Below are positions 3,711 through 63,370 of a stretch of DNA of 64,000 bases, piece after piece. The notes under the pieces were generated by a model that saw only the letters and a program-made list of their open reading frames with translations, was not told the DNA's origin and did no database searches. Source of the stretch: a virus (taxonomy: Duplodnaviria; Caudoviricetes). Where the stretch lies: positions 4,035 to 68,034 of IMG/VR virus record IMGVR_UViG_3300005989_000004; one strand, written 5' to 3'. Numbering within the stretch: the first letter of the stretch is position 1; the number at the start of each line of letters is the position of its first letter. Made by a program: the position numbers and the translations under genes.

Positions 3711-4075
3711 TGATAGGAAAGAAAAGCTCATTCTTCTCACGTTTCAAATTAAAAGGTAGACGTGTTGAAGAAACATTAGATGATTTTAGTAGACCAATTT
3801 CCATCACAACTACAGAGTTTGATGTATTAGATTGCACAATACAACCAGTAACAGGTAATGATTTGTTAGCTCTTGGTGAAGGTTTTAGAACTAAATCAGT
3901 GTATGCAATATTTACATCAACTCTAATATTTGAAGGTGATAACACCAACAGAAAGCCTGATGAAATAGAAATCTATTCTAAATGGTATCGTGTTGCTAGG
4001 GTGGAAATATGGCAAAATGGTGTAGCATCTCATTACAAATGTATTTGTGTTGAGAAAGATTTAGGATTGTTGTAA
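3710..4075 (+). CDS. Head closure (stopper) protein
   Basis: 121 aa, IQPVTGNDLLALGEG motif, neck module position. Confidence 0.55.
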   Translation: MIGKKSSFFSRFKLKGRRVEETLDDFSRPISITTTEFDVLDCTIQPVTGNDLLALGEGFRTKSVYAIFTSTLIFEGDNTNRKPDEIEIYSKWYRVARVEIWQNGVASHYKCICVEKDLGLL

Positions 4076-5127
4076 TGACATATTTTTATACAGACACAAA
4101 TGACATAGATATTGTATTACAGGGTAATTTTCCTTCAAGTTTAATAATCAAGAAGTTTGTTGTTGAGTTTGGGGATGAGATTGTTTTATCAAATTATTTT
4201 ACAGGGGATATTGTTACATCCCAAGCTGGTGTTCACATATACCAAAACTACCCAAGCAATAATTCCTATTTAAAATTTGACCCTAGCAATGGGCTAAATC
4301 AATCTAGTTTGTGGACAACTTTGAACCTTGGTGGGAGACAATTATCTAGCGGTTTTACTGTTGTTAATAACCCAGATAACAGTTTCGGTGACGATTATAA
4401 AATACCAATACCGTTGTATGTTAGTAATGATTCTTTTGAACATGCTTTTTTAGAAAAAGGTGTTTTAATTCCAACAGGAAACATCTACACTAGACAAGAT
4501 ATTCAATCAGCAGCGTCAACGTTCTATCATGTCCCTAGTTTGAATTTATCAACTTACGCCCCTAGTAATTTTAGTTCAATAAGGGTTGTCGATAGTTCTA
4601 GTTTTGTTACATCAACAGTAGGTGCTGTTAATAATTCAACACCCGTCATGGCCTCAGAATTTAATGGAAAACTTTTCATAGGCTATGGTGATAAGTACTC
4701 CATCTTTGACAACCAGACTAAAACTAATTCAATATACAACATGCCTAGTGGTCAAACTGTTTGGCAGATGTATAGGGTTGGTGAAAAGTATATTGCTAGT
4801 AAAAGTGCTGGCACATTTTACATTGTAGAAAGTAATGGTGATAATATCTCGCAAGGTGCGGATATATCATTACCTTGTACAACAGGGTCTAATAGATTCT
4901 TCAGATATGACAGGTGGAGTTTTTACTTACATTACATTAGCGGTAACAACAACAATTCTCCATTGTATATTATAGATGACGATTTGAACATAACCACAGT
5001 ACCTAATTTTGCTAAATACAGATGTAGTATTTTAGGTGGGTGTACAATAAATGAAGATATATACTTATTCTACATAAACCAAGGCAATAACCTTCTTGCT
5101 AGAAAAATAGGTAAGGTAGTATATTAA
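4075..5127 (+). CDS. Hypothetical beta-rich protein inserted in the neck module
   Basis: 350-aa ORF coupled to the previous stop (TAATG); rich in N/S/Y/T; no recognised motif. Confidence 0.7.
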   Translation: MTYFYTDTNDIDIVLQGNFPSSLIIKKFVVEFGDEIVLSNYFTGDIVTSQAGVHIYQNYPSNNSYLKFDPSNGLNQSSLWTTLNLGGRQLSSGFTVVNNPDNSFGDDYKIPIPLYVSNDSFEHAFLEKGVLIPTGNIYTRQDIQSAASTFYHVPSLNLSTYAPSNFSSIRVVDSSSFVTSTVGAVNNSTPVMASEFNGKLFIGYGDKYSIFDNQTKTNSIYNMPSGQTVWQMYRVGEKYIASKSAGTFYIVESNGDNISQGADISLPCTTGSNRFFRYDRWSFYLHYISGNNNNSPLYIIDDDLNITTVPNFAKYRCSILGGCTINEDIYLFYINQGNNLLARKIGKVVY

Positions 5128-5131
5128 ATTG

Positions 5132-5159
5132 TTGACATTAACTGTAAAAGGTGTATATT
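5132..5159 (+). promoter_or_regulatory. sigma70-type promoter upstream of tail terminator gene
   Basis: TTGACA-N16-TATATT. Confidence 0.6.
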
Positions 5160-5729
5160 AAAATGAATAATACCCTAGAACTTGCAGTTGCTGATTTAGA
5201 ATTAAAAATCAAAGGAATTATAACAGACACTGTTAATCTTCCAGTAACTATAAGAAATCAATCTAACCAAAAACCAGCAACACCTTACGTTGAATTATAT
5301 TTTAATGAATATAGTGAAGTGGGAAAAGGTGTTGTTAATTCTAAAGCTGGTGATTATGACACTACATCAAAAGAATATGAGGTGTATGTTGAAATCACTT
5401 GCTACAGAACTAAAGACCCCTCTATTACGCTAAGTAATATCTTAAACGTTCTCTCTACATCGAGAGCTTCTTATTTTAAACACTTCGACGATCAACAAGC
5501 GTCTTTCTTACGTGCGTCTAGCGTTATCCGCAGAGATATTCCTATTGATAAAGTTCAGATTGAACAACGTTCCAGAATGACTTGTGTGTTTAGCATTGTT
5601 GTTAATGAGAAAGTGGAAACTGTAGCAGATTTAGGTATCAAGACTGTGCAGTTTGGTACTCCCGCAAACGGTGGCGTGATTGTTCATGCTGAAACAGAAC
5701 TTAAATGGTATCAAGAAATTTCGTATTAG
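5151..5729 (+). CDS. Tail terminator / sheath-stabilising protein (ATG start probably 5163)
   Basis: 192 aa, PxxPY motif, directly before sheath. Confidence 0.6.
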   Translation: MYIKMNNTLELAVADLELKIKGIITDTVNLPVTIRNQSNQKPATPYVELYFNEYSEVGKGVVNSKAGDYDTTSKEYEVYVEITCYRTKDPSITLSNILNVLSTSRASYFKHFDDQQASFLRASSVIRRDIPIDKVQIEQRSRMTCVFSIVVNEKVETVADLGIKTVQFGTPANGGVIVHAETELKWYQEISY

Positions 5730-5755
5730 AAATCTCAATAATAAAGGAAAAATAA

Positions 5756-6814
5756 ATGGCTGTTGAAATTGATTCAATTGTTGATGTTGGTGTTAGTCTT
5801 GGTGGTGCGCCTGTAAGCGCAGCTAGCTTCGCTACAGCGGCTTATCTCGCTGACCTTACTGACGTTGCCTTTCCAGACGCATATCGCGTCTACACCTCTC
5901 TGGATGGCGTTAAAGTTGATTTTGCAGAATCATCTAAAACTTATAAATTTGCACTAGCTTTATTCAGTGGTAAATTCCGTCCAGAAAGTTTATATGTAAT
6001 TAAATATCGTACAGCAGGTACTGTATTAACCGCAACAAATGCTTTATCTGCTGTCCGTATCTTAGACACTAAACCATACTGGATTGCTAGTGATACTCGT
6101 GTTGACGCAACAATCACTGCTTTAGCATCTTACTGTGAAGCTGAGAAATTAATGTTTGTCACTGCAACACAACAAGTAGGTGCATTAGTTCCAGCCACCA
6201 CTACAGACATTATCAGTGTATTAAAAGCTGCTGGTGTTGATCACTCGTTCTGTTTGTATTCTGGTGATGCTGATAACTCTCAAGCTGAAGGTGCTGTAAT
6301 TGGTGCTATTGCTGGATTGGAAGCTGGTACAACAACATTAGAATTCAAAACTCTGATGGGGATTGTTGCTGATAATTTAAATGATACACAAGTTACATCA
6401 TTACTATCTAAGAATGGCGCACACTATCAGTCTACTGCTGGTGTGAATTGTTTATATAATTCAAAAGTAGCATCAGGTCAATTTATTGATACTATCGTTT
6501 TTGCTGATTGGTTGAAAGCTCGTCTTGGTGAAAGTATCTTTGGTATGCTGAAACGTGAGTCTGATAGTGGTCGTAAAGTTAACATGGATGAGTCAGGTTT
6601 TGCTAAAATCAAATCTGCAATCAGTGAAGTGTTATCTTATGGTAAATTGGTTGGTAGTATTTCTGCTGATATGGAACCTGTGATCCGCATTCCTAAGCGT
6701 GAAGATATTCCAACAAATGACCGCGCAAATCGTATTCTACCAAATGTTGTGGTTGAATTGTTATACACCAATGGCGTACACAAAGTTAAAGTACGCGCAT
6801 TCGTAACTATCTAA
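5756..6814 (+). CDS. Contractile tail sheath protein (DUF3383-like)
   Basis: 352 aa; IDSIVDVGV N-terminus, FIDTIVFADWLKARL motif, followed by tube gene. Confidence 0.85.
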   Translation: MAVEIDSIVDVGVSLGGAPVSAASFATAAYLADLTDVAFPDAYRVYTSLDGVKVDFAESSKTYKFALALFSGKFRPESLYVIKYRTAGTVLTATNALSAVRILDTKPYWIASDTRVDATITALASYCEAEKLMFVTATQQVGALVPATTTDIISVLKAAGVDHSFCLYSGDADNSQAEGAVIGAIAGLEAGTTTLEFKTLMGIVADNLNDTQVTSLLSKNGAHYQSTAGVNCLYNSKVASGQFIDTIVFADWLKARLGESIFGMLKRESDSGRKVNMDESGFAKIKSAISEVLSYGKLVGSISADMEPVIRIPKREDIPTNDRANRILPNVVVELLYTNGVHKVKVRAFVTI

Positions 6815-6827
6815 TAGGAGATAATTA

Positions 6828-7301
6828 ATGTCGATGTTAAAATCTTTCGATCCTAAAACAGTTACACTAAACGTTGCAGGTATTACATTTTCTGGCTTTG
6901 GTGATAATATGTTAACTATTGACCGAGCTAATGGTGTAACAACTACCACTGTTGGTGTTAAGGGTGACATTTCTGTTAACGTAGATGCTCGTTATAATGG
7001 CACTTTATCGTTTACTTTATTACACAATGCGCCAGACAATAATGTGATGTATGCCTTAGTTAAATCGTATGAATTAGGTCAAACACCATTCTTCCCTGTA
7101 TTCATGGAAGATCCAAGCGGTGCCACTATTTCAACTACAGGGTGGATTGAAACTCAACCATCTTATTCTGTTGGTGCTGAAACAGGTAGTTTGGAATGGG
7201 TGGTTGGATTAGCTGATGCTCGTCTATTCCCTAACGCTGAAATTTCTATTGCTAATGTATTATCTGGTGTAGCTAAGTCTGCATTACAGGGGATTTTCTA
7301 A
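6828..7301 (+). CDS. Tail tube protein (DUF3277-like)
   Basis: 157 aa; FDPKTVTLNVAGITFSGF...VGVKG motif; position after sheath. Confidence 0.8.
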   Translation: MSMLKSFDPKTVTLNVAGITFSGFGDNMLTIDRANGVTTTTVGVKGDISVNVDARYNGTLSFTLLHNAPDNNVMYALVKSYELGQTPFFPVFMEDPSGATISTTGWIETQPSYSVGAETGSLEWVVGLADARLFPNAEISIANVLSGVAKSALQGIF

Positions 7302-7391
7302 GAAGATTCTAAAGTAATAGAATATTAGTTTCATGTGTCACAAGGATGTGACCTCTAATTATAACAAGGATGTATGTTTTGAGAAATAAGG

Positions 7392-7841
7392 ATGATAAAC
7401 ATGAATCAAATTGAAGAACGTTTTTCCGTAGCTGGAAAGAATTTTATTAGTAAGAAATGGCCTACACGCAGTAAAGCATTCCGTAACCTGCCAATCATCG
7501 GTAAACATTTTGCTGTACCAATCTCTATGATCATGGCTAGTCGTAGTGAAGATGAATTACAGGAAAAGATCCCAACAGCATTATACATGTTGTTTGAACA
7601 ATTAGAAGATAGTGATAGCACTGTTCTGATTGATACAATTTTAGAAGATGTTACAATTAATGATATTGCCAATGGTCTTGGTTATCGTAAATTAGATGTA
7701 GATAATGATATTGATGACATTGCTGACTTATTAGATTTGTTAGCTTTAGTGTTGCGTCAACAATATGGAAAACTGATTGAGGGAAAGTCTTTCGGGAACC
7801 TGCTTCAAGTGATGATTCCTCTAGCTCAGGCGACGGCATAA
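7392..7841 (+). CDS. Tail assembly chaperone (lambda G-like)
   Basis: 149 aa between tube and tape measure; contains GGGAAAG slippery site at 7781-7787. Confidence 0.78.
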   Translation: MINMNQIEERFSVAGKNFISKKWPTRSKAFRNLPIIGKHFAVPISMIMASRSEDELQEKIPTALYMLFEQLEDSDSTVLIDTILEDVTINDIANGLGYRKLDVDNDIDDIADLLDLLALVLRQQYGKLIEGKSFGNLLQVMIPLAQATA

Positions 7842-8068
7842 GCAAAGAAGCTCTTGCGTGGGTTGAAGCTAAGTCTACATTATCAGCATTAGATAGAATG
7901 TACATGAGAGTGGTAATAGACGGCAGAGTAGATCCAATCTCATTAGAAATGATGGGGTTGGATTTTTTGTTTGATATGCACGAATATTTAGATGTACAAA
8001 GCTATTTGGAAAAAGATGTTAGAAAGGTTGCCGAAAGAAAATCTAAAAAGAAAGAGCGAGGCAAGTAA
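7781..8068 (+). CDS. -1 frameshift extension of the tail assembly chaperone (G-T-like product ~225 aa)
   Basis: G-GGA-AAG read in frame as E-G-K; the -1 frame stays open (KVFREPASSDDS...KKKERGK) to TAA 8066-8068, abutting the tape measure ATG at 8069; absent from the ORF track. Confidence 0.85.
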   Translation, partial: GKVFREPASSDDSSSSGDGISKEALAWVEAKSTLSALDRMYMRVVIDGRVDPISLEMMGLDFLFDMHEYLDVQSYLEKDVRKVAERKSKKKERGK

Positions 8069-25413: not shown

Positions 25414-25812
25414 TTACCCCTCCAACGTACTTTCTAACACCACTCCACCATCAATCACTAACCCTAACGACCCATCAACACTATGTTTAATATAATGCTT
25501 ACCAGCTAACAATTCTGGCATTGGGTTGGATGGAGGAGTGTTGACTTTAGTGATAGCACGAACAGCGTCACTGAGTTCTTTTTCACTGATCAACAGATCT
25601 TTAATCGTAGGTCTCACCTGAAAATAGAAATTATCGCTAGTGTCAATTGAAATAAAATTAGCGTTAGAATTACCATAACGGATAGAAGGCGAGAAATACT
25701 CAACCCACTTCTTAGTGTTTGGAAAACTAACGAATTTCTGTTCATTTACTTTCAATTTTTCTGAAAAATACTCTAATAAATCCTTACCTGTAACTTTGTA
25801 TGTTGTAGTCAT
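25414..25812 (-). CDS. Hypothetical protein (start moved to ATG 25812)
   Basis: AGGAGA RBS before MTTTYKV; the longer ORF start lies inside the promoter. Confidence 0.65.
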   Translation of the reverse strand: MTTTYKVTGKDLLEYFSEKLKVNEQKFVSFPNTKKWVEYFSPSIRYGNSNANFISIDTSDNFYFQVRPTIKDLLISEKELSDAVRAITKVNTPPSNPMPELLAGKHYIKHSVDGSLGLVIDGGVVLESTLEG

Positions 25813-25843
25813 GTTGTCTCTCCTATTTGTTGAACACGTAGAA

Positions 25844-25872
25844 ATAATAAACCTCGTTGATAACTGTGTCAA
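25844..25872 (-). promoter_or_regulatory. sigma70-type promoter
   Basis: TTGACA-N17-TATTAT. Confidence 0.7.
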
Positions 25873-25897
25873 TGGGTGATTTGAAATATTTTAGATA

Positions 25898-25923
25898 ATA
25901 AAAAGCCTAGCGCAAGGCTAGGC
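25898..25923 (-). terminator. Terminator after nrdB
   Basis: GCCTAGC-N5-GCTAGGC then TTTTT on - strand. Confidence 0.8.
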
Positions 25924-25931
25924 CACATTCA

Positions 25932-27041
25932 TCACAAATCTACATCAAACATCATATCTTCCTCTACATCGCTATTGACAGCAGCAGTGAGGTAGTTTCC
26001 TAATTGCACTTCTTGTGGTGCTGATTGGACTAGGTTGGGGTTGATATAACTTTCCAACCATTTAGGGCTAGATTTTACTTTAGGGAAATCAAACTTAATT
26101 CCTAATCGCTGATAGACATTACCTGCTAAGTGGTATACGTAGTCTTTAAGCACGTCACTGTTAAACCCTACAACGCTACCACATCCAACAAATAGATTAT
26201 CAGACCATTCCTGTTCACTCTTAACAGCAGTGTCTAGGATCAGCTTAACCTCATCCTTCATTTCTTTCCATTCAGACCATTTCTCTTTCTTAATGATAAT
26301 GTTTAAGAAAGCTAGCATATTCTCTAAATGACAACCAGCCTCGTCATTGTGAATCAAACCAACACGTTTAGCAATACCGTTAAACTTACCTGTGCTATCA
26401 GCTAATGCGAATGTAGCCATAAATGACGCAAGGAACATAATTCCTTCCAATGCAACAAACGACACTAACAATTTAATTGTAGCTTTACGCTTATCAGATA
26501 GAGTTGATGACTCATCTAACAACACTGTTTGTTTATATGCCTTGAATGCTTTCCCAATCGGCGCTAAACGCTTTAATAAATTAGCATCATTGTTTACACG
26601 TTCATACATCTTATTAGGGTCTGAGAAGCATTGAGCAACGATTAGAGCATAAGCCTCTTCATGCACAGCCTCAGCATCACCATGATAGCTAATTAACTTC
26701 TTGGCTTGGTGGTTGGTGAGGATTGGAAATAAAAGCTCTTGTAGTGAGCCTGAAGCCAAACTATCAGCAGCCATTTGAAAGCTAAGATTACGTACCATAA
26801 GCTCTACAACATTAGGATCTGCTTCTTTCATATCAATAGCTGACTGAGCTAATGAAAACTCATCTGAAGGCCAGAACAAGCTGCGTTGTTTTTGATCTAA
26901 TATAGTTAGTTCAGGATACGGGTTATTGAACGCATCAAACACGCCTAAATCCTCACCAAAGAATAAAGGATTTTTACCCTTAGCTGTTGCTTTGTTATTG
27001 AAATTTAAAAATTCACTATCAATTGTCATATACATCTCCAT
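25932..27041 (-). CDS. nrdB: Ribonucleotide reductase class I beta subunit (start probably 27029)
   Basis: FWPSDEF, EAVHEEAY (radical Tyr), LEGIMFLASF and DEAGCH di-iron ligands; downstream of nrdA. Confidence 0.95.
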   Translation of the reverse strand: MEMYMTIDSEFLNFNNKATAKGKNPLFFGEDLGVFDAFNNPYPELTILDQKQRSLFWPSDEFSLAQSAIDMKEADPNVVELMVRNLSFQMAADSLASGSLQELLFPILTNHQAKKLISYHGDAEAVHEEAYALIVAQCFSDPNKMYERVNNDANLLKRLAPIGKAFKAYKQTVLLDESSTLSDKRKATIKLLVSFVALEGIMFLASFMATFALADSTGKFNGIAKRVGLIHNDEAGCHLENMLAFLNIIIKKEKWSEWKEMKDEVKLILDTAVKSEQEWSDNLFVGCGSVVGFNSDVLKDYVYHLAGNVYQRLGIKFDFPKVKSSPKWLESYINPNLVQSAPQEVQLGNYLTAAVNSDVEEDMMFDVDL

Positions 27042-47525: not shown

Positions 47526-49031
47526 TTATAAACTTTCCAATTGATCTCGAACACGTTTACGGATTTCTGCTAAACTTGTTTCTTTAACAAGAACGCCGTT
47601 CTCAAATACAACTTCTAACAAGCCTTGTTGTTCTTGTTCACGGGTTTGTTGGTCATATTGTACAAGTTTACCATCTACACGTTCGATACGTAATAAGCCA
47701 CAAGCAGATTTCTTCTTACTGTCTGTTGCTGGGTCTTTGAATACGTTGACACCTTTGCCACCTTTTTCTACGTAAGTAGTCTTGACACAGCTTGAGTGCG
47801 TATCACGAGTAACATACTGATAAGAATAGCTCCCCACACCAAGAACCACCACCCCAGCGAAACCTTTAGCTTCTAACCGTTCAATAATTTGTTGCTGACG
47901 TTCCAGTGTAATACTGTCTCCGTAAACAGCACCAATGTTATCGTGCAGTAACTTCAATCCTGTAGGAGACAATGAACCACCAAAAATGTCCCACAGACAT
48001 TCAACCAAACCTTTACGTTCGACTTCATTGGTTGAGCTTTCGTCGCCCGTTAGGACTTTAACTGGATCGCCTGAATCTGGACGAATTACCAACTTACCGT
48101 TACGTGCAAGAATCTCATTCTTCAACACAGGTAAGCCTTCTGTTACGAATTTCCAAAAATCAAAGCTGTCTGATACGTGACTGAGAATCCCCGTTGGAAC
48201 CACCGACATTAGATAACGAACATATTCAATTTCAGCATCCAGCTTACTGATACCTTTCTCCTCCACCAAACTAAGAATAAAACTGGTAGTTGTGGAATGT
48301 TCTGTTGCGGCGCAAGAAGCACCAACAAGTTCTGTATCAACATTAGCATTATAATACTTTTCAGCAAAAGATAGAGCTGATATAGTATCTGTTCCAGCAA
48401 AACTACACAAGTGACCAAAACCACTCATTGCAGCAGCTTGACGACCAAACATGCCCCGTGCCGAAAAGTCATGACACATAAACGGCACTAAATCTAAAGA
48501 TAATCCTGCGCGATTAAAGGCACTAACAGTATTCTTTAAATACGCAAAACTCGTAGTAGCGCTAGTTTGAATAGGCCAATTTTCATTAGAAAATACAGTC
48601 TCTAAATAGTTTGGCAACCATTGAAAACCATCAACAGTATTTGTAAAAGTTACCGGAGAAATACCGTAAGGGACTAAACTGCCTTCAGGTAATGCTTTTA
48701 CCAACAAAGGTAAGTAGCCTAAATCGTGCAACTTCTCAAAATGTGAAGCATCGTAGTTGATGCCAATAGCGCTGTCAACATAACGCTTTATGTTAGAAAT
48801 AGCTTTCTCTTTAGGTAAATTAAAGAATGTCTCGTTCCACTCACGAATCAGATAATCTTTGATAAAATACTGTAAACCAACAAACACCACTTCTGCGTTG
48901 TTTGGAACGTTTGACAGTTTACCGTTTCGACTGGTAAAATTACTATATACTTTAGTAATGGCAGGGTGATATGCCATCTTGTGAAAAGTCTTGTAGTAGT
49001 CTGTGTGAACTGTCGCATTAAATACTGTCAT
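47526..49031 (-). CDS. nadV: Nicotinamide phosphoribosyltransferase-like protein (candidate Namat)
   Basis: TDYYKTFH, HDFSARG, ATEHS, VSDSFD, IRPDSGDP, YGDSIT, GVGSYSYQ...RDT, KDPATD..KKS motifs. Confidence 0.92.
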   Translation of the reverse strand: MTVFNATVHTDYYKTFHKMAYHPAITKVYSNFTSRNGKLSNVPNNAEVVFVGLQYFIKDYLIREWNETFFNLPKEKAISNIKRYVDSAIGINYDASHFEKLHDLGYLPLLVKALPEGSLVPYGISPVTFTNTVDGFQWLPNYLETVFSNENWPIQTSATTSFAYLKNTVSAFNRAGLSLDLVPFMCHDFSARGMFGRQAAAMSGFGHLCSFAGTDTISALSFAEKYYNANVDTELVGASCAATEHSTTTSFILSLVEEKGISKLDAEIEYVRYLMSVVPTGILSHVSDSFDFWKFVTEGLPVLKNEILARNGKLVIRPDSGDPVKVLTGDESSTNEVERKGLVECLWDIFGGSLSPTGLKLLHDNIGAVYGDSITLERQQQIIERLEAKGFAGVVVLGVGSYSYQYVTRDTHSSCVKTTYVEKGGKGVNVFKDPATDSKKKSACGLLRIERVDGKLVQYDQQTREQEQQGLLEVVFENGVLVKETSLAEIRKRVRDQLESL

Positions 49032-49034
49032 AAT

Positions 49035-49904
49035 TTACTCTCCTAAATTAAAATTACTATTAAATTTATAAACTTCATCTTTTGTCACATAACCAGCTAC
49101 TGTGTGGTAACAGAACAAATTATCAATCTTTCCGTGTAGAATGTCAAGACCTTTTGATGCAATTAAATGTGTTACGTATAAATCAATTTGTGCTGGAACT
49201 TGTTTCTGAAGTTCTGTAGCTAACTGAATGTATGTCCCGCCAGCATCAAGGAGGTCATCAACAATCAACAATTTCTTACCGGACACATCACCATTCACCA
49301 CAGGATTGCTCAACTTACCTGTGGTTGGATCACGTTCTTTAGTGCAAGTGATTAGCGGTAATCCATAATAATCTGCAATAACCTGTGCCTTACCCACAGC
49401 GCCTTTATCTGGCGCAATAATAGCATCGTACTGTTTAATGTCAACTCTGAAATTATTCAAAGCCACACCAAGCGCCTCTAGTTGTGAGATGATTTCAACT
49501 CGTGAAAATGGTGAAAAACACATCTTTGCTTGAGTATTTAACTTTACAGGATTGTGAGGATCTACAACAATAATTTTGTCAAAATTAAATTCTGATAATC
49601 TGGTTATAAACTGATGTAGGCCATAATTACCATTTTCTGAAAATTTCCTATCTGCTCTAGCGTAAGGAAGATACGGTAAATACAAACTTGAGTCAGCATA
49701 ATAATACAACTCATAACGATTTAACGCATTATCCAACTGATACAACTCATCCAAAATTGTATTCACCTTTGTAGATGGATCAACACTAAACACAATACGA
49801 TGTGCTGTTTCAGGAAGATTTTTCAAATCAAATCCAAAAGCACCATCACTGAATACGATACGTCCTGTATCTATTTCTTTATTGTCAATAAATAAACGAA
49901 TCAT
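49035..49904 (-). CDS. prs: Ribose-phosphate pyrophosphokinase-like protein (candidate Adps)
   Basis: FSDG, LPYLPYARADR, VDPH, APDKGA, KERD, IVDDLLDAGGT, YVTH motifs. Confidence 0.9.
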   Translation of the reverse strand: MIRLFIDNKEIDTGRIVFSDGAFGFDLKNLPETAHRIVFSVDPSTKVNTILDELYQLDNALNRYELYYYADSSLYLPYLPYARADRKFSENGNYGLHQFITRLSEFNFDKIIVVDPHNPVKLNTQAKMCFSPFSRVEIISQLEALGVALNNFRVDIKQYDAIIAPDKGAVGKAQVIADYYGLPLITCTKERDPTTGKLSNPVVNGDVSGKKLLIVDDLLDAGGTYIQLATELQKQVPAQIDLYVTHLIASKGLDILHGKIDNLFCYHTVAGYVTKDEVYKFNSNFNLGE

Positions 49905-50470: not shown

Positions 50471-50560
50471 CGCCCTAGAAAGCTCTACAAGCGATTATTT
50501 GCAATAGTCTATCCAAACGTATTAGCTAACAATACAATCGCTTTAAACGTTTCCTAGCTG
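50471..50560 (-). repeat. Dispersed intergenic element copy 1 (GCGATT-N39-AATCGC with internal TAATACGT)
   Basis: On - strand TAATAC starts 50524 and AATCGC starts 50496; arms GCGATT 50491-50496 and AATCGC 50536-50541. Confidence 0.7.
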
Positions 50561-52003: not shown

Positions 52004-52080
52004 CTATAACGCATTATAGCACACGCTAACACTAAGTAATACGTCAGCCTACCCTAACACATTTAATCCTCAGCAAAGCT
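52004..52080 (+). repeat. Dispersed intergenic element copy 2
   Basis: TAATACGT at 52037 and AATC at 52065 (same 28-nt offset), followed by N9-GCT. Confidence 0.6.
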
Positions 52081-52098: not shown

Positions 52099-52350
52099 CT
52101 ATGCTAAAATATCTTCAATTGCAATCTGTTTATCCACTAAATCGAAATCAAAATCTTCAAACTTAGCAACCAAATGAACATCATAAGGTAGGTAGCGTTT
52201 AAACACTTGTGTATCCACCTCGTCCTCAGCACTGTAGAGATAACCATTAGGTTGTAGATATAAGTATTTAGCATTTTTAGGCACCATAATGGTAAATCCA
52301 TAGAAATCTACTTGGTTGTATTCGATCACTGTGTTAAAAACTAAGTTCAT
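52099..52350 (-). CDS. Hypothetical protein
   Basis: 83 aa, GAGGA RBS, own promoter. Confidence 0.65.
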   Translation of the reverse strand: MNLVFNTVIEYNQVDFYGFTIMVPKNAKYLYLQPNGYLYSAEDEVDTQVFKRYLPYDVHLVAKFEDFDFDLVDKQIAIEDILA

Positions 52351-52381: not shown

Positions 52382-52409
52382 ATTATACATGAGGGAGTGG
52401 TGTTGTCAA
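52382..52409 (-). promoter_or_regulatory. sigma70-type promoter
   Basis: TTGACA-N16-TATAAT, TG just upstream of -10. Confidence 0.7.
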
Positions 52410-52422
52410 CAGGAAATTTTGG

Positions 52423-53718
52423 TTATTTTCTCCTAACCACACAATTATTTCCACCAACAACTACATCATAGGCTTTATACATATTAGATTCAGCAATATC
52501 AGCATAATCTTCCTGCACAACTACGGAATCATGTATAGGGATTAGTATTCTATCATCTTCCACAGCCCTTTCCAGCATGTAATCCATTAAACTACTCTCA
52601 ACGTTCATCAAAAACGTAGCTTTCTTGCTGAAGAAATAATCTACTAAATAGGCATTTCTCTCCATTAACATATCTAACATTTTTCTAATTATTGGGAACT
52701 CTTGCCATTCACCCCTAGACTTAGCTGAATCTATTTTTTCTTGTACTCCTGAAGATTTCAATTCTGATAGCGTAGCATAATAAGCCGATTCAAAACTATC
52801 AGAGTTTATTAAGCACATCAGCCCCACTTTACATAATTCCCTCATTATGTTTTTACAATAACCTTCAATCTCAACCCCATAAACATCAAAATCACTGTCT
52901 AGTTCTTGCCCAAGTAAGTCTGCTGCCATTCTAGGCCAAAGTTGAGCGTAATCTAATTCTATCGTTGGTGATCCGTCAATAACTATTTGTCTACGATTGT
53001 CTTTCTTAATTAAGTCGCTAACGTTTGCCCCAGTCATAAAGATTCTACCTCCTTCTTTGAGGGATGAGTTGTTGTATATCTTACGCACAGAAATGTAAAA
53101 TCTTTCGTCTTGAACATTAATTTCACCTTTATCGAGAGATACATTAAAAGCGTTTAAAACTTTGATTAAATTCTTTTCTCTTTCTGTCAGTCTGATACCC
53201 ACTGGTCTACCACTACTGTCTCTAACTTCTAAAACACTGTCTTTTATTGAACTAGATTCTGTTACTTGTGCAACTTGATAAAGCATACTCTCACAAAGGT
53301 ATAGCTTACTAGTTTCAAAGTTTTTAGGAGCCATCACAAGCCTACCTTTAGTGTTGTCATATTCCAACTCAAAATCTGTAGCCCCACCTACTTCTATTCT
53401 GGAATTAGTAAAGTTTTCCAAATATGATAGCACGATTTTCATATTTGTGTAACTAATCTTTCTACCTGTGTTATTCCCGTTGTATATGGCTGGATTGGAA
53501 TAACTAGTCTGATTCAAGGTTAGAGTTATGTATGGTCTACCTCTGTTAATAATGTAGCTTGTGTTCAGGATTATGCAATAACAACACCTCTTTATGTCAG
53601 TCATTCTCTTAGCTGTGATTTTAACTTCAGTAAACTGTCTCAGATACTTGATAACATCTTCGTAAAGTTTATCTCCTATGGGAGTTAATTTCTTATTTAT
53701 CTTGTAATCTAATAGCAT
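52423..53718 (-). CDS. Stand-alone Pol A / single-subunit RNAP-like palm-domain protein
   Basis: 431 aa; GGRIF, IELDYAQLWPR (motif A-like), RELCK (motif B RxxxK), VESSLM, IPIHDSVVV (motif C-like); no exonuclease domains. Confidence 0.6.
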   Translation of the reverse strand: MLLDYKINKKLTPIGDKLYEDVIKYLRQFTEVKITAKRMTDIKRCCYCIILNTSYIINRGRPYITLTLNQTSYSNPAIYNGNNTGRKISYTNMKIVLSYLENFTNSRIEVGGATDFELEYDNTKGRLVMAPKNFETSKLYLCESMLYQVAQVTESSSIKDSVLEVRDSSGRPVGIRLTEREKNLIKVLNAFNVSLDKGEINVQDERFYISVRKIYNNSSLKEGGRIFMTGANVSDLIKKDNRRQIVIDGSPTIELDYAQLWPRMAADLLGQELDSDFDVYGVEIEGYCKNIMRELCKVGLMCLINSDSFESAYYATLSELKSSGVQEKIDSAKSRGEWQEFPIIRKMLDMLMERNAYLVDYFFSKKATFLMNVESSLMDYMLERAVEDDRILIPIHDSVVVQEDYADIAESNMYKAYDVVVGGNNCVVRRK

Positions 53719-53891: not shown

Positions 53892-53919
53892 AATATACTC
53901 CAATCCACAATTTTGTCAA
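53892..53919 (-). promoter_or_regulatory. sigma70-type promoter for the palm-domain gene
   Basis: TTGACA-N16-TATATT; back-to-back with the + strand promoter. Confidence 0.65.
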
Positions 53920-54323: not shown

Positions 54324-55400
54324 ATGTCAGCAAAAAATAAAAGTTTAGTAACATACAAAATGTTTGATGAAAATTTCAAATGTCGTGACTTCCAATATAA
54401 AATTGGCACTACGTATAAAACAGATAAGGTGAAAGTTTGTGAAGTAGGTTTTCATGCTTGTGAATTCCCTTTGGATTGTTTTAAGTATTACTCACCTAGC
54501 ACTTCTAGGTTTGCTGAAGTTGTTCAGTCTGGTAAAATCTCAAAACATGGTGACGATTCTAAGGTAGCGTCTGCCGAAATTTATATCAAAGTTGAAATGA
54601 GTTTACCTCAGTTCATTGGTAAAGCCGTAGACTATATTTTAGCTAAAATTGATTGGAACAATGCAGCGGCTACTAACACAGGTCGCTGCTCAGCAGCTAC
54701 TAACACAGGCGACTACTCAGCAGCTACTAACACAGGTCACTGCTCAGCAGCTACTAACACAGGCGACTACTCAGCAGCTACTAACACAGGCAACTACTCA
54801 GCAGCTACTAACATAGGTCGTCGCTCAGCGGCTACTAACACAGGCAACTACTCAGCGGCTACTAACACAGGTCGCTACTCAGCAGCTACTAACACAGGCG
54901 ACCGAACAGCAGCTACTAACACAGGTCACTGCTCAGCAGCTACTAACACAGGTGACTACTCAGCGGCTACTAACACAGGTCGCCACTCAGCGGCTACTAA
55001 TACAGGCCACCGCTCAGTAGCTACTAACACAGGTAACTACTCAGCAGCTACTAACACAGGTGACTACTCAGCGGCTACTAATACAGGCCACCGCTCAGTA
55101 GCTACTAACACAGGTCACTGCTCAGCAGCTACTAATACAGGCCACCGCTCAGTAGCTACTAACACAGGTCACTGCTCAGCAGCTACTGTCAGCGGGTCAC
55201 ATTCGGTAGCTATCTCATCAGGAACTCAAGGAATAGCTAAAGCCTCCGTTGGTAGCGCTATTGTATTAGTATATCGAAATAAGAATTCAGGTGAAATTCT
55301 CCACATTAAAGCGGGTATTGCTGGTAAAGATGTAGAACCTGATGTATTTTATACTTTAGATTTAAATGGTAATTTTGTAAAAACAGAGGAGAGTAAGTAA
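54324..55400 (+). CDS. Phage repeat protein (DUF7666-like N-terminus plus 9-aa AATNTGxxS solenoid)
   Basis: YKMFDENFKCRDFQYKIG...GFHACEFPLDCFKYY N-terminus; 19 repeats; C-terminal GIAGKDVEPDVFYTL. Confidence 0.75.
   Translation: MSAKNKSLVTYKMFDENFKCRDFQYKIGTTYKTDKVKVCEVGFHACEFPLDCFKYYSPSTSRFAEVVQSGKISKHGDDSKVASAEIYIKVEMSLPQFIGKAVDYILAKIDWNNAAATNTGRCSAATNTGDYSAATNTGHCSAATNTGDYSAATNTGNYSAATNIGRRSAATNTGNYSAATNTGRYSAATNTGDRTAATNTGHCSAATNTGDYSAATNTGRHSAATNTGHRSVATNTGNYSAATNTGDYSAATNTGHRSVATNTGHCSAATNTGHRSVATNTGHCSAATVSGSHSVAISSGTQGIAKASVGSAIVLVYRNKNSGEILHIKAGIAGKDVEPDVFYTLDLNGNFVKTEESK
54666..55178 (+). repeat. 19 x 27-bp coding tandem repeat
   Basis: Unit GCAGCTACTAACACAGG(T/C)-6 variable nt-TCA counted through the protein. 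Confidence 0.95.
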
Positions 55401-57490: not shown

Positions 57491-57565
57491 AAGAGCTTTT
57501 GAGCGATTTATTTATTGAGTAATACGTTAGGGCAGGTAAGTAGAGATAATCGCTCAAAAGCTCTT
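57491..57565 (+). repeat. Dispersed intergenic element copy 3 with perfect 18-bp inverted arms
   Basis: AAGAGCTTTTGAGCGATT (57491-57508), N39 with TAATACGT at 57520, AATCGCTCAAAAGCTCTT (57548-57565). Confidence 0.85.
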
Positions 57566-58812: not shown

Positions 58813-59614
58813 TGTGTTTATTGTAATTGATACAGAAACAACAGGATTGTTTGAGCCTGAATTGGTTGAATTTGGATTTAGTGTATTTCGTAAAGAACGA
58901 AAGGATTTCAGTTTAGTTTATAAGTATTCTGAGCTATTCAAACCATCTAAGCCTATTGAATATAGTGCTATGGGTGTGCATCATATTACAAATGATGATG
59001 TTAAGTTTCAAGGGAGTTTCCCACATAAAACATTAAACTTAAAAAATATTATTGATGGTCAGATTCTTGTTAAAAATATCCGAGAAGATGATGTTGTATT
59101 TTTAGTGGGTCACAATGTTGAATTTGATTTGAAAGTGCTACCAGAATTCTTGGATAGTGTCAATTTAATTAAAGAACCATCAGATAGTGAGCTAGAATTT
59201 TTAGAACCGGATCAATTTTATCACACATCGAAGGTTGTATATCTTTTAGATACATTAAAAGCGGCACGTAATGTTGTCGATAAGAAAGAATGTGGCGATC
59301 ATAAAAACATCACTCTATTCTATTATTTTGAATTAAATAAAATCCTAACTATTAAAGATTTACACAGTGTTGAAACAGATACGCTTATCACAGGATGGTT
59401 GGTGAATGTTATGGCTAACAAATATGGATTAGCTCGAATGTTCAAAGGGAAAGAGAAAGAAGATTATACAGTGTGTATGTTCCCTAAATATAAAAATATC
59501 AAATGGGACGATGTTTGCCGTAAAGATATTGATTATGTGAAATTCTTAAAAGATAAAGGCAAGCTAAACACTGAACAAATCTCTCTCATTAAGAGTCTTG
59601 GGTTTAAGCTATAA
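58805..59614 (+). CDS. DEDDh 3'-5' exonuclease (DnaQ/ExoX-like)
   Basis: IDTETTG, VHHIT, GHNVEFD, LDTL, HSVETD. Confidence 0.85.
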   Translation: MANVFIVIDTETTGLFEPELVEFGFSVFRKERKDFSLVYKYSELFKPSKPIEYSAMGVHHITNDDVKFQGSFPHKTLNLKNIIDGQILVKNIREDDVVFLVGHNVEFDLKVLPEFLDSVNLIKEPSDSELEFLEPDQFYHTSKVVYLLDTLKAARNVVDKKECGDHKNITLFYYFELNKILTIKDLHSVETDTLITGWLVNVMANKYGLARMFKGKEKEDYTVCMFPKYKNIKWDDVCRKDIDYVKFLKDKGKLNTEQISLIKSLGFKL

Positions 59615-59819: not shown

Positions 59820-59833
59820 ATTGCCTAAAATTT

Positions 59834-59960
59834 AGAACCGGATGAGAATTATCACAAGCCGAAGGCTGGTCAAAATAAAACACAAACAAATTATAATTTC
59901 TAAATAAATTTTGCTGAATAATTTCAGAACCGGAGCGATTTTATCATAGCTCGAAGGCTG
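59834..59960 (+). repeat. Two 35-bp imperfect direct repeats in the long non-coding gap
   Basis: AGAACCGGA-N17-CGAAGGCTG at 59834-59868 and 59926-59960, both with central TTATCA. Confidence 0.75.
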
Positions 59961-63287: not shown

Positions 63288-63370
63288 GCAATAGGCTAGC
63301 CGCTGTGAGATTTTAAACGGCTAGCCAAGCCAAGGTATTACAAAAATTTGCGTCGATTCTAGCGCATTCT
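63288..63370 (-). repeat. Dispersed intergenic element copy 4 (divergent)
   Basis: On - strand TAATAC starts 63340 and AATC starts 63312 (28-nt offset), followed by N8-GCT. Confidence 0.55.

Follow-up and report, generated by a model that had tools for sequence, protein, structure and literature searches.

The 64,000-nucleotide stretch of tailed-phage DNA analysed here (positions 4,035 to 68,034 of IMG/VR record IMGVR_UViG_3300005989_000004; hereinafter the window) carries on its minus strand a gene for a small polymerase-like protein that we assign to the divPolA2 family (Table 1). On the leftward strand this gene comes first, behind a divergent intergenic region. Near 54 kilobases (kb) the GC skew changes sign and the genes diverge, in agreement with the strand switch proposed in a preliminary description that was made from the letters of this DNA. 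The operon headed by divPolA2 ends in a primase-helicase and a family B DNA polymerase (PolB). The family B replicase named in that description is the minus-strand open reading frame (ORF) 42315-44537, which matches phrog_1252 'DNA polymerase' (E 4.9e-181) and shows two motifs typical of family B, YDLES (residues 7-11) and DIDITSMYPS (starting at residue 385). Beside it, about 5.4 kb downstream of divPolA2, lies the primase-helicase, which is of the Toprim/DnaB type; both genes follow divPolA2 in the same orientation, as in Rheinheimera phage Barba18A. The source record is 68 kb long, is estimated to be 73% complete and holds one divPolA2 copy. An identical protein is on record from a contig of 93,484 bases, and a fuller genome of this phage is probably present in public assemblies.

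Table 1 Coordinates of the divPolA2 gene, its domains and motifs, and associated sequence elements in the window
Feature	Position	Strand	Description and basis
divPolA2 gene	52423..53718	-	431 amino acids (aa) plus stop codon (52423-52425); ORF with homology to phrog_4756, Barba18A gp034 and AUR84708
N-terminal domain, residues 1-156	53251..53718	-	Predicted helical hairpin (9-29, 36-58), then alpha/beta part
Polymerase core, residues 157-431	52426..53250	-	Beta-hairpin Arg, palm, short fingers
GGRIF (223-227)	53038..53052	-	Counterpart of Pol A TGR(L)SS and of T/DxxGR in RNA polymerases; aligned to 8jrb_A
Motif A, ELDYAQLW (254-261)	52936..52959	-	D256 invariant; W261 at the position of the Pol A steric-gate Glu
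DVYG (278-281)	52876..52887	-	Y280 invariant
Putative motif B / O-helix, R293-x3-K297-x3-M301-x3-N305	52804..52842	-	Conservation; model helix 289-305
ESSLM (374-378)	52585..52599	-	E374, the acidic residue that marks the type H clade
Motif C, IHDS (395-398)	52525..52536	-	D397 invariant
Predicted sigma-70-like promoter, TTGACA-16-TATATT	53892..53919	-	11/12 consensus match only; about 170 nucleotides (nt) upstream of ATG
TAATACST-N20-AATC, copy 1	50493-50524	-	
TAATACST-N20-AATC, copy 2	52037-52068	+	
TAATACST-N20-AATC, copy 3	57520-57551	+	
TAATACST-N20-AATC, copy 4	63309-63340	-	

The divPolA2 gene and its family

The five motifs on which the preliminary description was built (GGRIF, ELDYAQLW, RELCK at residues 293-297, ESSLM and IHDS) are all present in the translation where it had placed them. 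The codons of the two putative catalytic aspartates lie at 52951-52953 (D256, motif A) and 52528-52530 (D397, motif C), giving a spacing of 141 residues. Between them, the stretch 293-305 may be equivalent to motif B of Pol A, to judge from its spacing and from the helix predicted at residues 289-305, and the DVYG tetrapeptide presumably resembles the QDIYG stretch of T7 RNA polymerase (RNAP).

The protein matches phrog_4756, a family of unknown function, with an E value of 6.6e-64. An exhaustive phmmer search returned 1995 representative clusters (50% identity) at E<=1e-3, a number that falls to 249 at E<=1e-10; with few exceptions the homologues are 410-460 aa long. Six residues (R225, R242, D256, Y280, K297 and D397) are invariant in a 70-sequence alignment. 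Among 151 aligned homologues of 20-45% identity, R242, D256, Y280, K297 and D397 remain invariant, R225 is found in 149 of the 151 sequences and R293 in 148. N305 is present in 60 of the 70 homologues, and in the N-terminal domain C48, N52, N80, G81, S89 and G111 are near-invariant. To judge from these alignments, the motif set and its conservation are far beyond chance, and the active site of the protein, a two-metal one of the Pol A type, is intact and has been held by strong purifying selection. The preliminary description had made its assignment depend on conservation of the two aspartates, and neither of them varies in any of the 151 sequences.

The divPolA2 family was defined by Yutin et al. 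(2024, 'DNA polymerase swapping in Caudoviricetes bacteriophages', Virol J 21:200, PMC11348598). According to the passages of that paper on which we draw, it was first recognized in barbaviruses, in 110 genomes of 80-85 kb (Barba18A and its relatives) that all encode a regular PolB as well, and it is characterized by a variable gene neighbourhood, an apparently active palm, no exonuclease, no thumb homologous to known ones and a globular domain at the N terminus that has no known similarity; the exemplar is AUR84708 from Vibrio phage 1.063.O, and the proposed functions are a repair DNA polymerase (DNAP), which is named first, or an RNAP (PMC11348598). Our protein shares 72% identity across 97% of its length with a gene in 115 Rheinheimera phage records, and its Barba18A counterpart, gp034 (72% identity), is the only match to the divPolA2 profile in Barba18A. 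It also aligns end to end with AUR84708 (locus 25469-26761) in a BLASTP match of 24% identity over 438 columns (E 8e-27). No difference from the family is seen at the family level: the N-terminal domain of no known fold, the lack of an exonuclease and of a canonical thumb, and the intact palm are all shared, and the same holds for the setting, where neighbouring genes vary and the protein is a second polymerase next to a regular PolB. With every defining feature found, the protein is almost certainly a divPolA2 member, and the 'uncharacterised nucleotidyltransferase' of the preliminary description, insofar as it implied an unrecognized class, gives way to a family already in print (PMC11348598). 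The family is very large, extending over marine and enteric phages that include ICP1 of Vibrio cholerae and Felix O1-like phages.

Predicted fold and comparison with known polymerases

An AlphaFold2 model computed with the 70-sequence alignment has a mean predicted local distance difference test (pLDDT) score of 95.4 and a predicted template modelling (pTM) score of 0.88. The matches listed by Foldseek against the PDB are all family A DNAPs, including Klenow, Bst, Taq, T7 gp5 and the apicoplast polymerase, all at probability 1.00 and with a best E of about 2e-6. A VIA structure search, independent of Foldseek, puts 21 Pol A-superfamily entries on top, with scores of 13.7 for Aquifex Pol I, 13.0 for yeast mitochondrial RNAP and 12.7 for Pol nu, T7 RNAP and Klenow; the N4 enzymes score 7.9 (mini-vRNAP) and 7.4 (RNAPII). 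Both searches lead to the Pol A superfamily, in keeping with the right-hand palm on which the preliminary description had pinned its interpretation. Since the scores of DNA and RNA polymerases are tied, the fold is silent on substrate.

The core shared with the Pol A superfamily comprises residues of about 157-431. In the model, the palm and shortened fingers are kept and the canonical thumb is lost, and the model secondary structure contains no beta-hairpin between the O-helix and motif C that could be a specificity loop. Nor was an exonuclease domain found, in line with the earlier claim that there is none: Pfam gives no match, and residues 1-161, folded on their own, resemble no exonuclease. 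The conserved catalytic aspartates and the fold matches bear out the earlier picture of a stand-alone, exonuclease-less polymerase, and the protein is very probably a catalytically competent, template-directed member of the Pol A/T7-RNAP superfamily.

Sequence searches with the single protein give little: no Pfam family matches even at E<=10, NCBIfam and PADLOC return none, and phmmer against PDB sequences finds no match. None of the 70 homologues matches a Pfam polymerase model, and a Pfam scan of ten longer homologues (504-568 aa) gave nothing useful. The 70-sequence family profile reaches Aquifex Pol I (8jrb_A) at E 0.019 and aligns GGR with TGR, motif A with DFSQIELR and motif C with VHDE, in that order. 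Comparison of the family with single T7 RNAP and T7 DNAP sequences by hhalign yields a probability of 0.1, a value that cannot decide between the two.

With family A DNAPs (E. coli Pol I Klenow, Bst, Taq, T7 gp5 and the apicoplast polymerase) the protein has in common a TGR-like hairpin Arg, DYxQ(L/I), an R-x3-K O-helix and the HD of motif C. Unlike them, it does not match the Pfam DNA_pol_A model and lacks both an exonuclease domain and a canonical thumb, and its fingers are shorter than those of Klenow, in which the catalytic aspartates are 177 residues apart. It also departs from the family A signature of a steric-gate Glu together with HDE and an R-x3-K-x3-F-x3-YG O-helix: HDE is replaced by HDS, W261 stands opposite the Glu of DFSQIE in the profile alignment to 8jrb_A, and the Phe and Tyr positions of the O-helix (+4 and +8) are M301 and N305. 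Both the Trp gate and the missing O-helix aromatics had been pointed out in the preliminary description.

T7 RNAP has HDS in motif C, a Gly at the gate position and an O-helix Tyr that reads the 2'-hydroxyl (2'-OH). T7-like RNAPs (T7, mitochondrial, N4 vRNAP and N4 RNAPII) share with our protein the HDS, the O-helix +4 Met and a non-catalytic N-terminal domain in place of an exonuclease. Compared with them, the protein is half the size or less, shows no specificity-loop hairpin in the model, carries W261 and N305 where a small gate residue (Gly) and the 2'-OH-reading Tyr are expected, gives no Pfam match, and comes from a genome in which scans for long repeats and intergenic words showed no conserved promoter family. 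The judgement that it fits neither family cleanly is borne out on both sides.

Further parallels, compared here by description only, are TV-Pol, for which priming and extension have been proposed (Iyer, Abhiman and Aravind 2008, PMC2579912), and CcPol-MP of the PolA-SSB primases, for which priming and extension of DNA have been shown (Bebel et al. 2020, PMC7581432; Rice 2023, PMC10061031). These too are minimal, stand-alone, exonuclease-less Pol A-superfamily cores of viruses or mobile elements, composed of a beta-hairpin in which an Arg is conserved, a palm and fingers. A link or fusion to a D5-like or other helicase is what defines TV-Pol and CcPol, whereas the ORFs adjoining divPolA2 belong to no Pfam family and are not conserved; CcPol has a small OB-fold partner, whereas no conserved small partner was found among the ORFs flanking divPolA2; and TV-Pol retains a bi-helical thumb just before the hairpin, whereas divPolA2 has no canonical thumb. 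By analogy, our protein may work like the minimal Pol A cores of these enzymes.

Type E and type H clades of divPolA2

Two positions divide the family. Each of the 151 sequences has an acidic residue at exactly one of them, 261 or 374. In the clade designated type E, position 261 is Glu, position 374 is Gly (once Thr) and motif C is mostly [F/H/Y]DE, and some members carry an O-helix Tyr at 305; the ICP1 copy and the exemplar AUR84708 belong here, both with Gly374, [F/Y]DE and the O-helix Tyr. In type H, position 261 is His (or Trp, Phe or Tyr, rarely others), position 374 is Asp or Glu and motif C is mostly HDS. This clade includes our protein, the barbavirus proteins, both copies of Aeromonas phage PhAER-3 and the 'DNA polymerase' of the Pseudomonas phage PsaM_M1. 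Although the coupling of 261 and 374 is perfect in the 151 sequences, repeated co-evolution of the two residues was rejected: on a tree built without these two columns the split is a single change, and the coupling is therefore a clade signature rather than statistical covariation. The split is absent from the portion of PMC11348598 that we examined.

Trp is fixed at 261 among relatives of 66-100% identity, and Phe in a clade of 43-47% identity; motif A of these Trp/Phe relatives, DY[SAG]QL[WF]P, is very close to the DYSQIE of Pol I. Vibrio phage 249E41-1 carries three paralogues at separate places in its 129-kb genome, one of type E with a Glu gate and FDE and two of type H with a His gate and HDS, which suggests that the two types are not redundant. 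The copy studied here establishes no new principle; its value is that it represents the aromatic-gate (type H) clade cleanly and with high confidence.

Genomic setting and proposed role

The gene had been said to have its own promoter, and a predicted sigma-70-like site is indeed located upstream of its start codon (Table 1). The minus strand of the early/replication module (25-54 kb) is where near-consensus sites of this kind are concentrated, and only three are found in the 1-24 kb plus-strand module. A perfect consensus, TTGACA-16-TATAAT (12/12; 52382-52409, minus strand), lies 14 nt after the divPolA2 stop codon and before an 83-aa ORF (52099-52350). Adjacent early genes, to judge from these matches, seem to have strong host-type predicted promoters of their own. 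The 5' leader of divPolA2 shows no significant structure (folding z-score 0.00), and a riboswitch or attenuator was rejected on this ground. As for a phage-specific promoter family, the window contains no long multi-copy repeat and no enriched intergenic 8-9-mer, though short or hairpin promoters would escape these scans.

We compared the ORFs within 6 kb of the gene across this phage, Barba18A, two IMG/VR relatives, ICP1 and PsaM_M1. In these six genomes, a 54-aa ORF and a repeat protein on the far side of the strand switch were the sole recurring neighbours. Otherwise the ORFs flanking divPolA2 are not conserved, even against Barba18A; they belong to no Pfam family and contain neither an adjacent helicase nor a small conserved partner. 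Downstream, two ORFs of 83 and 146 aa have no Barba18A counterpart at E<=1e-4; they were also considered as mutual paralogues, an idea dropped for want of any similarity between them. The repeat protein (54324-55400, plus strand; 358 aa) has an N-terminal DUF7666 domain (E 6e-31) followed by at least about 18 tandem 27-nt repeats, each encoding 9 aa (SAATNTGxx), and its counterpart across the Barba18A strand switch is 31% identical and annotated 'pentapeptide'.

The preliminary description had suggested that the enzyme acts at dispersed hairpin elements. The element TAATACST-N20-AATC has four exact copies in the window, against about 0.9 expected even with one mismatch allowed; all of them lie in the 50-63 kb region, and one is flanked by perfect 18-bp inverted arms. 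The element is missing from Barba18A and from a Barba-like IMG/VR genome with a divPolA2 of 72-73% identity, and counts in a 93-kb relative are at chance level. On these counts the element is lineage-specific, and because it does not co-distribute with divPolA2 we reject a link to the polymerase; the suggestion finds no support. The computed family and the question of its product were already in print; the clade distinction and this negative evidence on the hairpin link are new.

We tentatively propose, as a reading that is plausible rather than probable, that the protein is a competent accessory polymerase for site-specific starting or priming of DNA synthesis early in infection. Host RNAP would probably transcribe divPolA2 early from the near-consensus sigma-70 site. 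The enzyme is an accessory to PolB and not the replicase, and would take no part in bulk replication. The missing thumb would mean low processivity and short products. The bulk of W261 at the steric gate, in an otherwise Pol I-like motif A, would favour deoxynucleoside triphosphates (dNTPs), and a leaning toward dNTPs is favoured also by the conservation of W261 and F261 in the close clades and by the lack of a long multi-copy promoter repeat in the window. The N-terminal domain would probably place the enzyme on DNA, and the enzyme, acting like a primase-polymerase, would most likely serve to initiate or prime DNA synthesis at particular sites. Several points weigh against this proposal. The phage already has a primase-helicase, which would make a priming role redundant; divPolA2 has beside it no conserved helicase or small single-stranded-DNA-binding partner, unlike TV-Pol and CcPol-MP; and the two or three paralogues of some phages argue against one simple essential role. 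The literature on divPolA2, as far as seen, consists of the 2024 paper and its preprint and includes no assayed member, which leaves substrate and role as matters of inference.

Were the product RNA instead, the enzyme would be a miniature single-subunit RNAP, made early by host RNAP, that transcribes a subset of genes or makes an origin RNA primer or R-loop and finds its start sites through the N-terminal domain. The HDS of motif C, as in T7-like RNAPs, the O-helix +4 Met and the invariant Y280 would suit such an enzyme, the structural scores of RNAPs keep the idea alive, the scarcity of sigma-70-like sites in the plus-strand module is compatible with it, and it is raised in PMC11348598. We nevertheless regard it as rather unlikely, given a bulky residue (W261/F261) where T7 RNAP has Gly, an Asn in place of its 2'-OH-reading O-helix Tyr, no hairpin in the model for a specificity loop, and a window in which the repeat and word scans show no conserved multi-copy promoter-like motif and whose sole dispersed element is not common to divPolA2-carrying relatives.

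An accessory DNAP without site specificity, acting in repair, gap filling or lesion bypass on damaged or nicked phage DNA and error-prone without proofreading, would account for a protein that is exonuclease-less and thumbless, yet has a complete active site with a Pol I-like motif A. A variable neighbourhood is expected of such an accessory gene, multiple paralogues per genome agree with it, and repair is the option listed first in PMC11348598. We hold it unlikely: an N-terminal domain of 156 residues is conserved, which points to a particular partner or site and away from general gap filling, the gene stands first in an early operon with its own strong predicted promoter, and the flanking ORFs show no linkage to recombination or repair genes. 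That the fold is catalytically dead and reused as a DNA-binding or regulatory protein, an option entertained in the preliminary description, is very improbable. The departures from Pol A at the steric gate and the O-helix aromatics and the failure of Pfam polymerase models would agree with it, but the metal-binding Asp pair, the O-helix Arg and Lys and the hairpin Arg are invariant or nearly so in the 151 homologues, which is unexpected of an inactivated enzyme.

A bolder form of the initiation proposal, which we consider doubtful, is that type H divPolA2 proteins are the smallest known self-sufficient initiating polymerases of the Pol A/T7-RNAP group. They would start RNA or DNA de novo, with a winged-helix-like N-terminal domain that picks the sites and replaces both thumb and specificity loop, and the clades would differ in sugar selectivity or template; if so, that difference would explain why some phages keep one of each. 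Knowing whether the product is DNA or RNA, and where it is made, would reveal the role of a second minimal polymerase beside a full replisome. Study of divPolA2 could also define the minimal working core of the Pol I/T7 RNAP fold and might yield a compact polymerase for biotechnology.

Two further features of these genomes may be recorded. In PhAER-3, positions 3995-7901 hold a type H divPolA2 gene followed directly by a prs-like gene, one small gene and a 1464-nt gene; in the window, the divPolA2 operon also holds, about 2.5 kb downstream of that gene, a prs-like and NAMPT-like pair (47526-49904). A 38-nt direct repeat occurs three times in the window (59200-59237, 59831-59868 and 59923-59960), with 79-82% identity to the reference copy; two of the repeats are located in a large AT-rich non-coding gap and one just before it.
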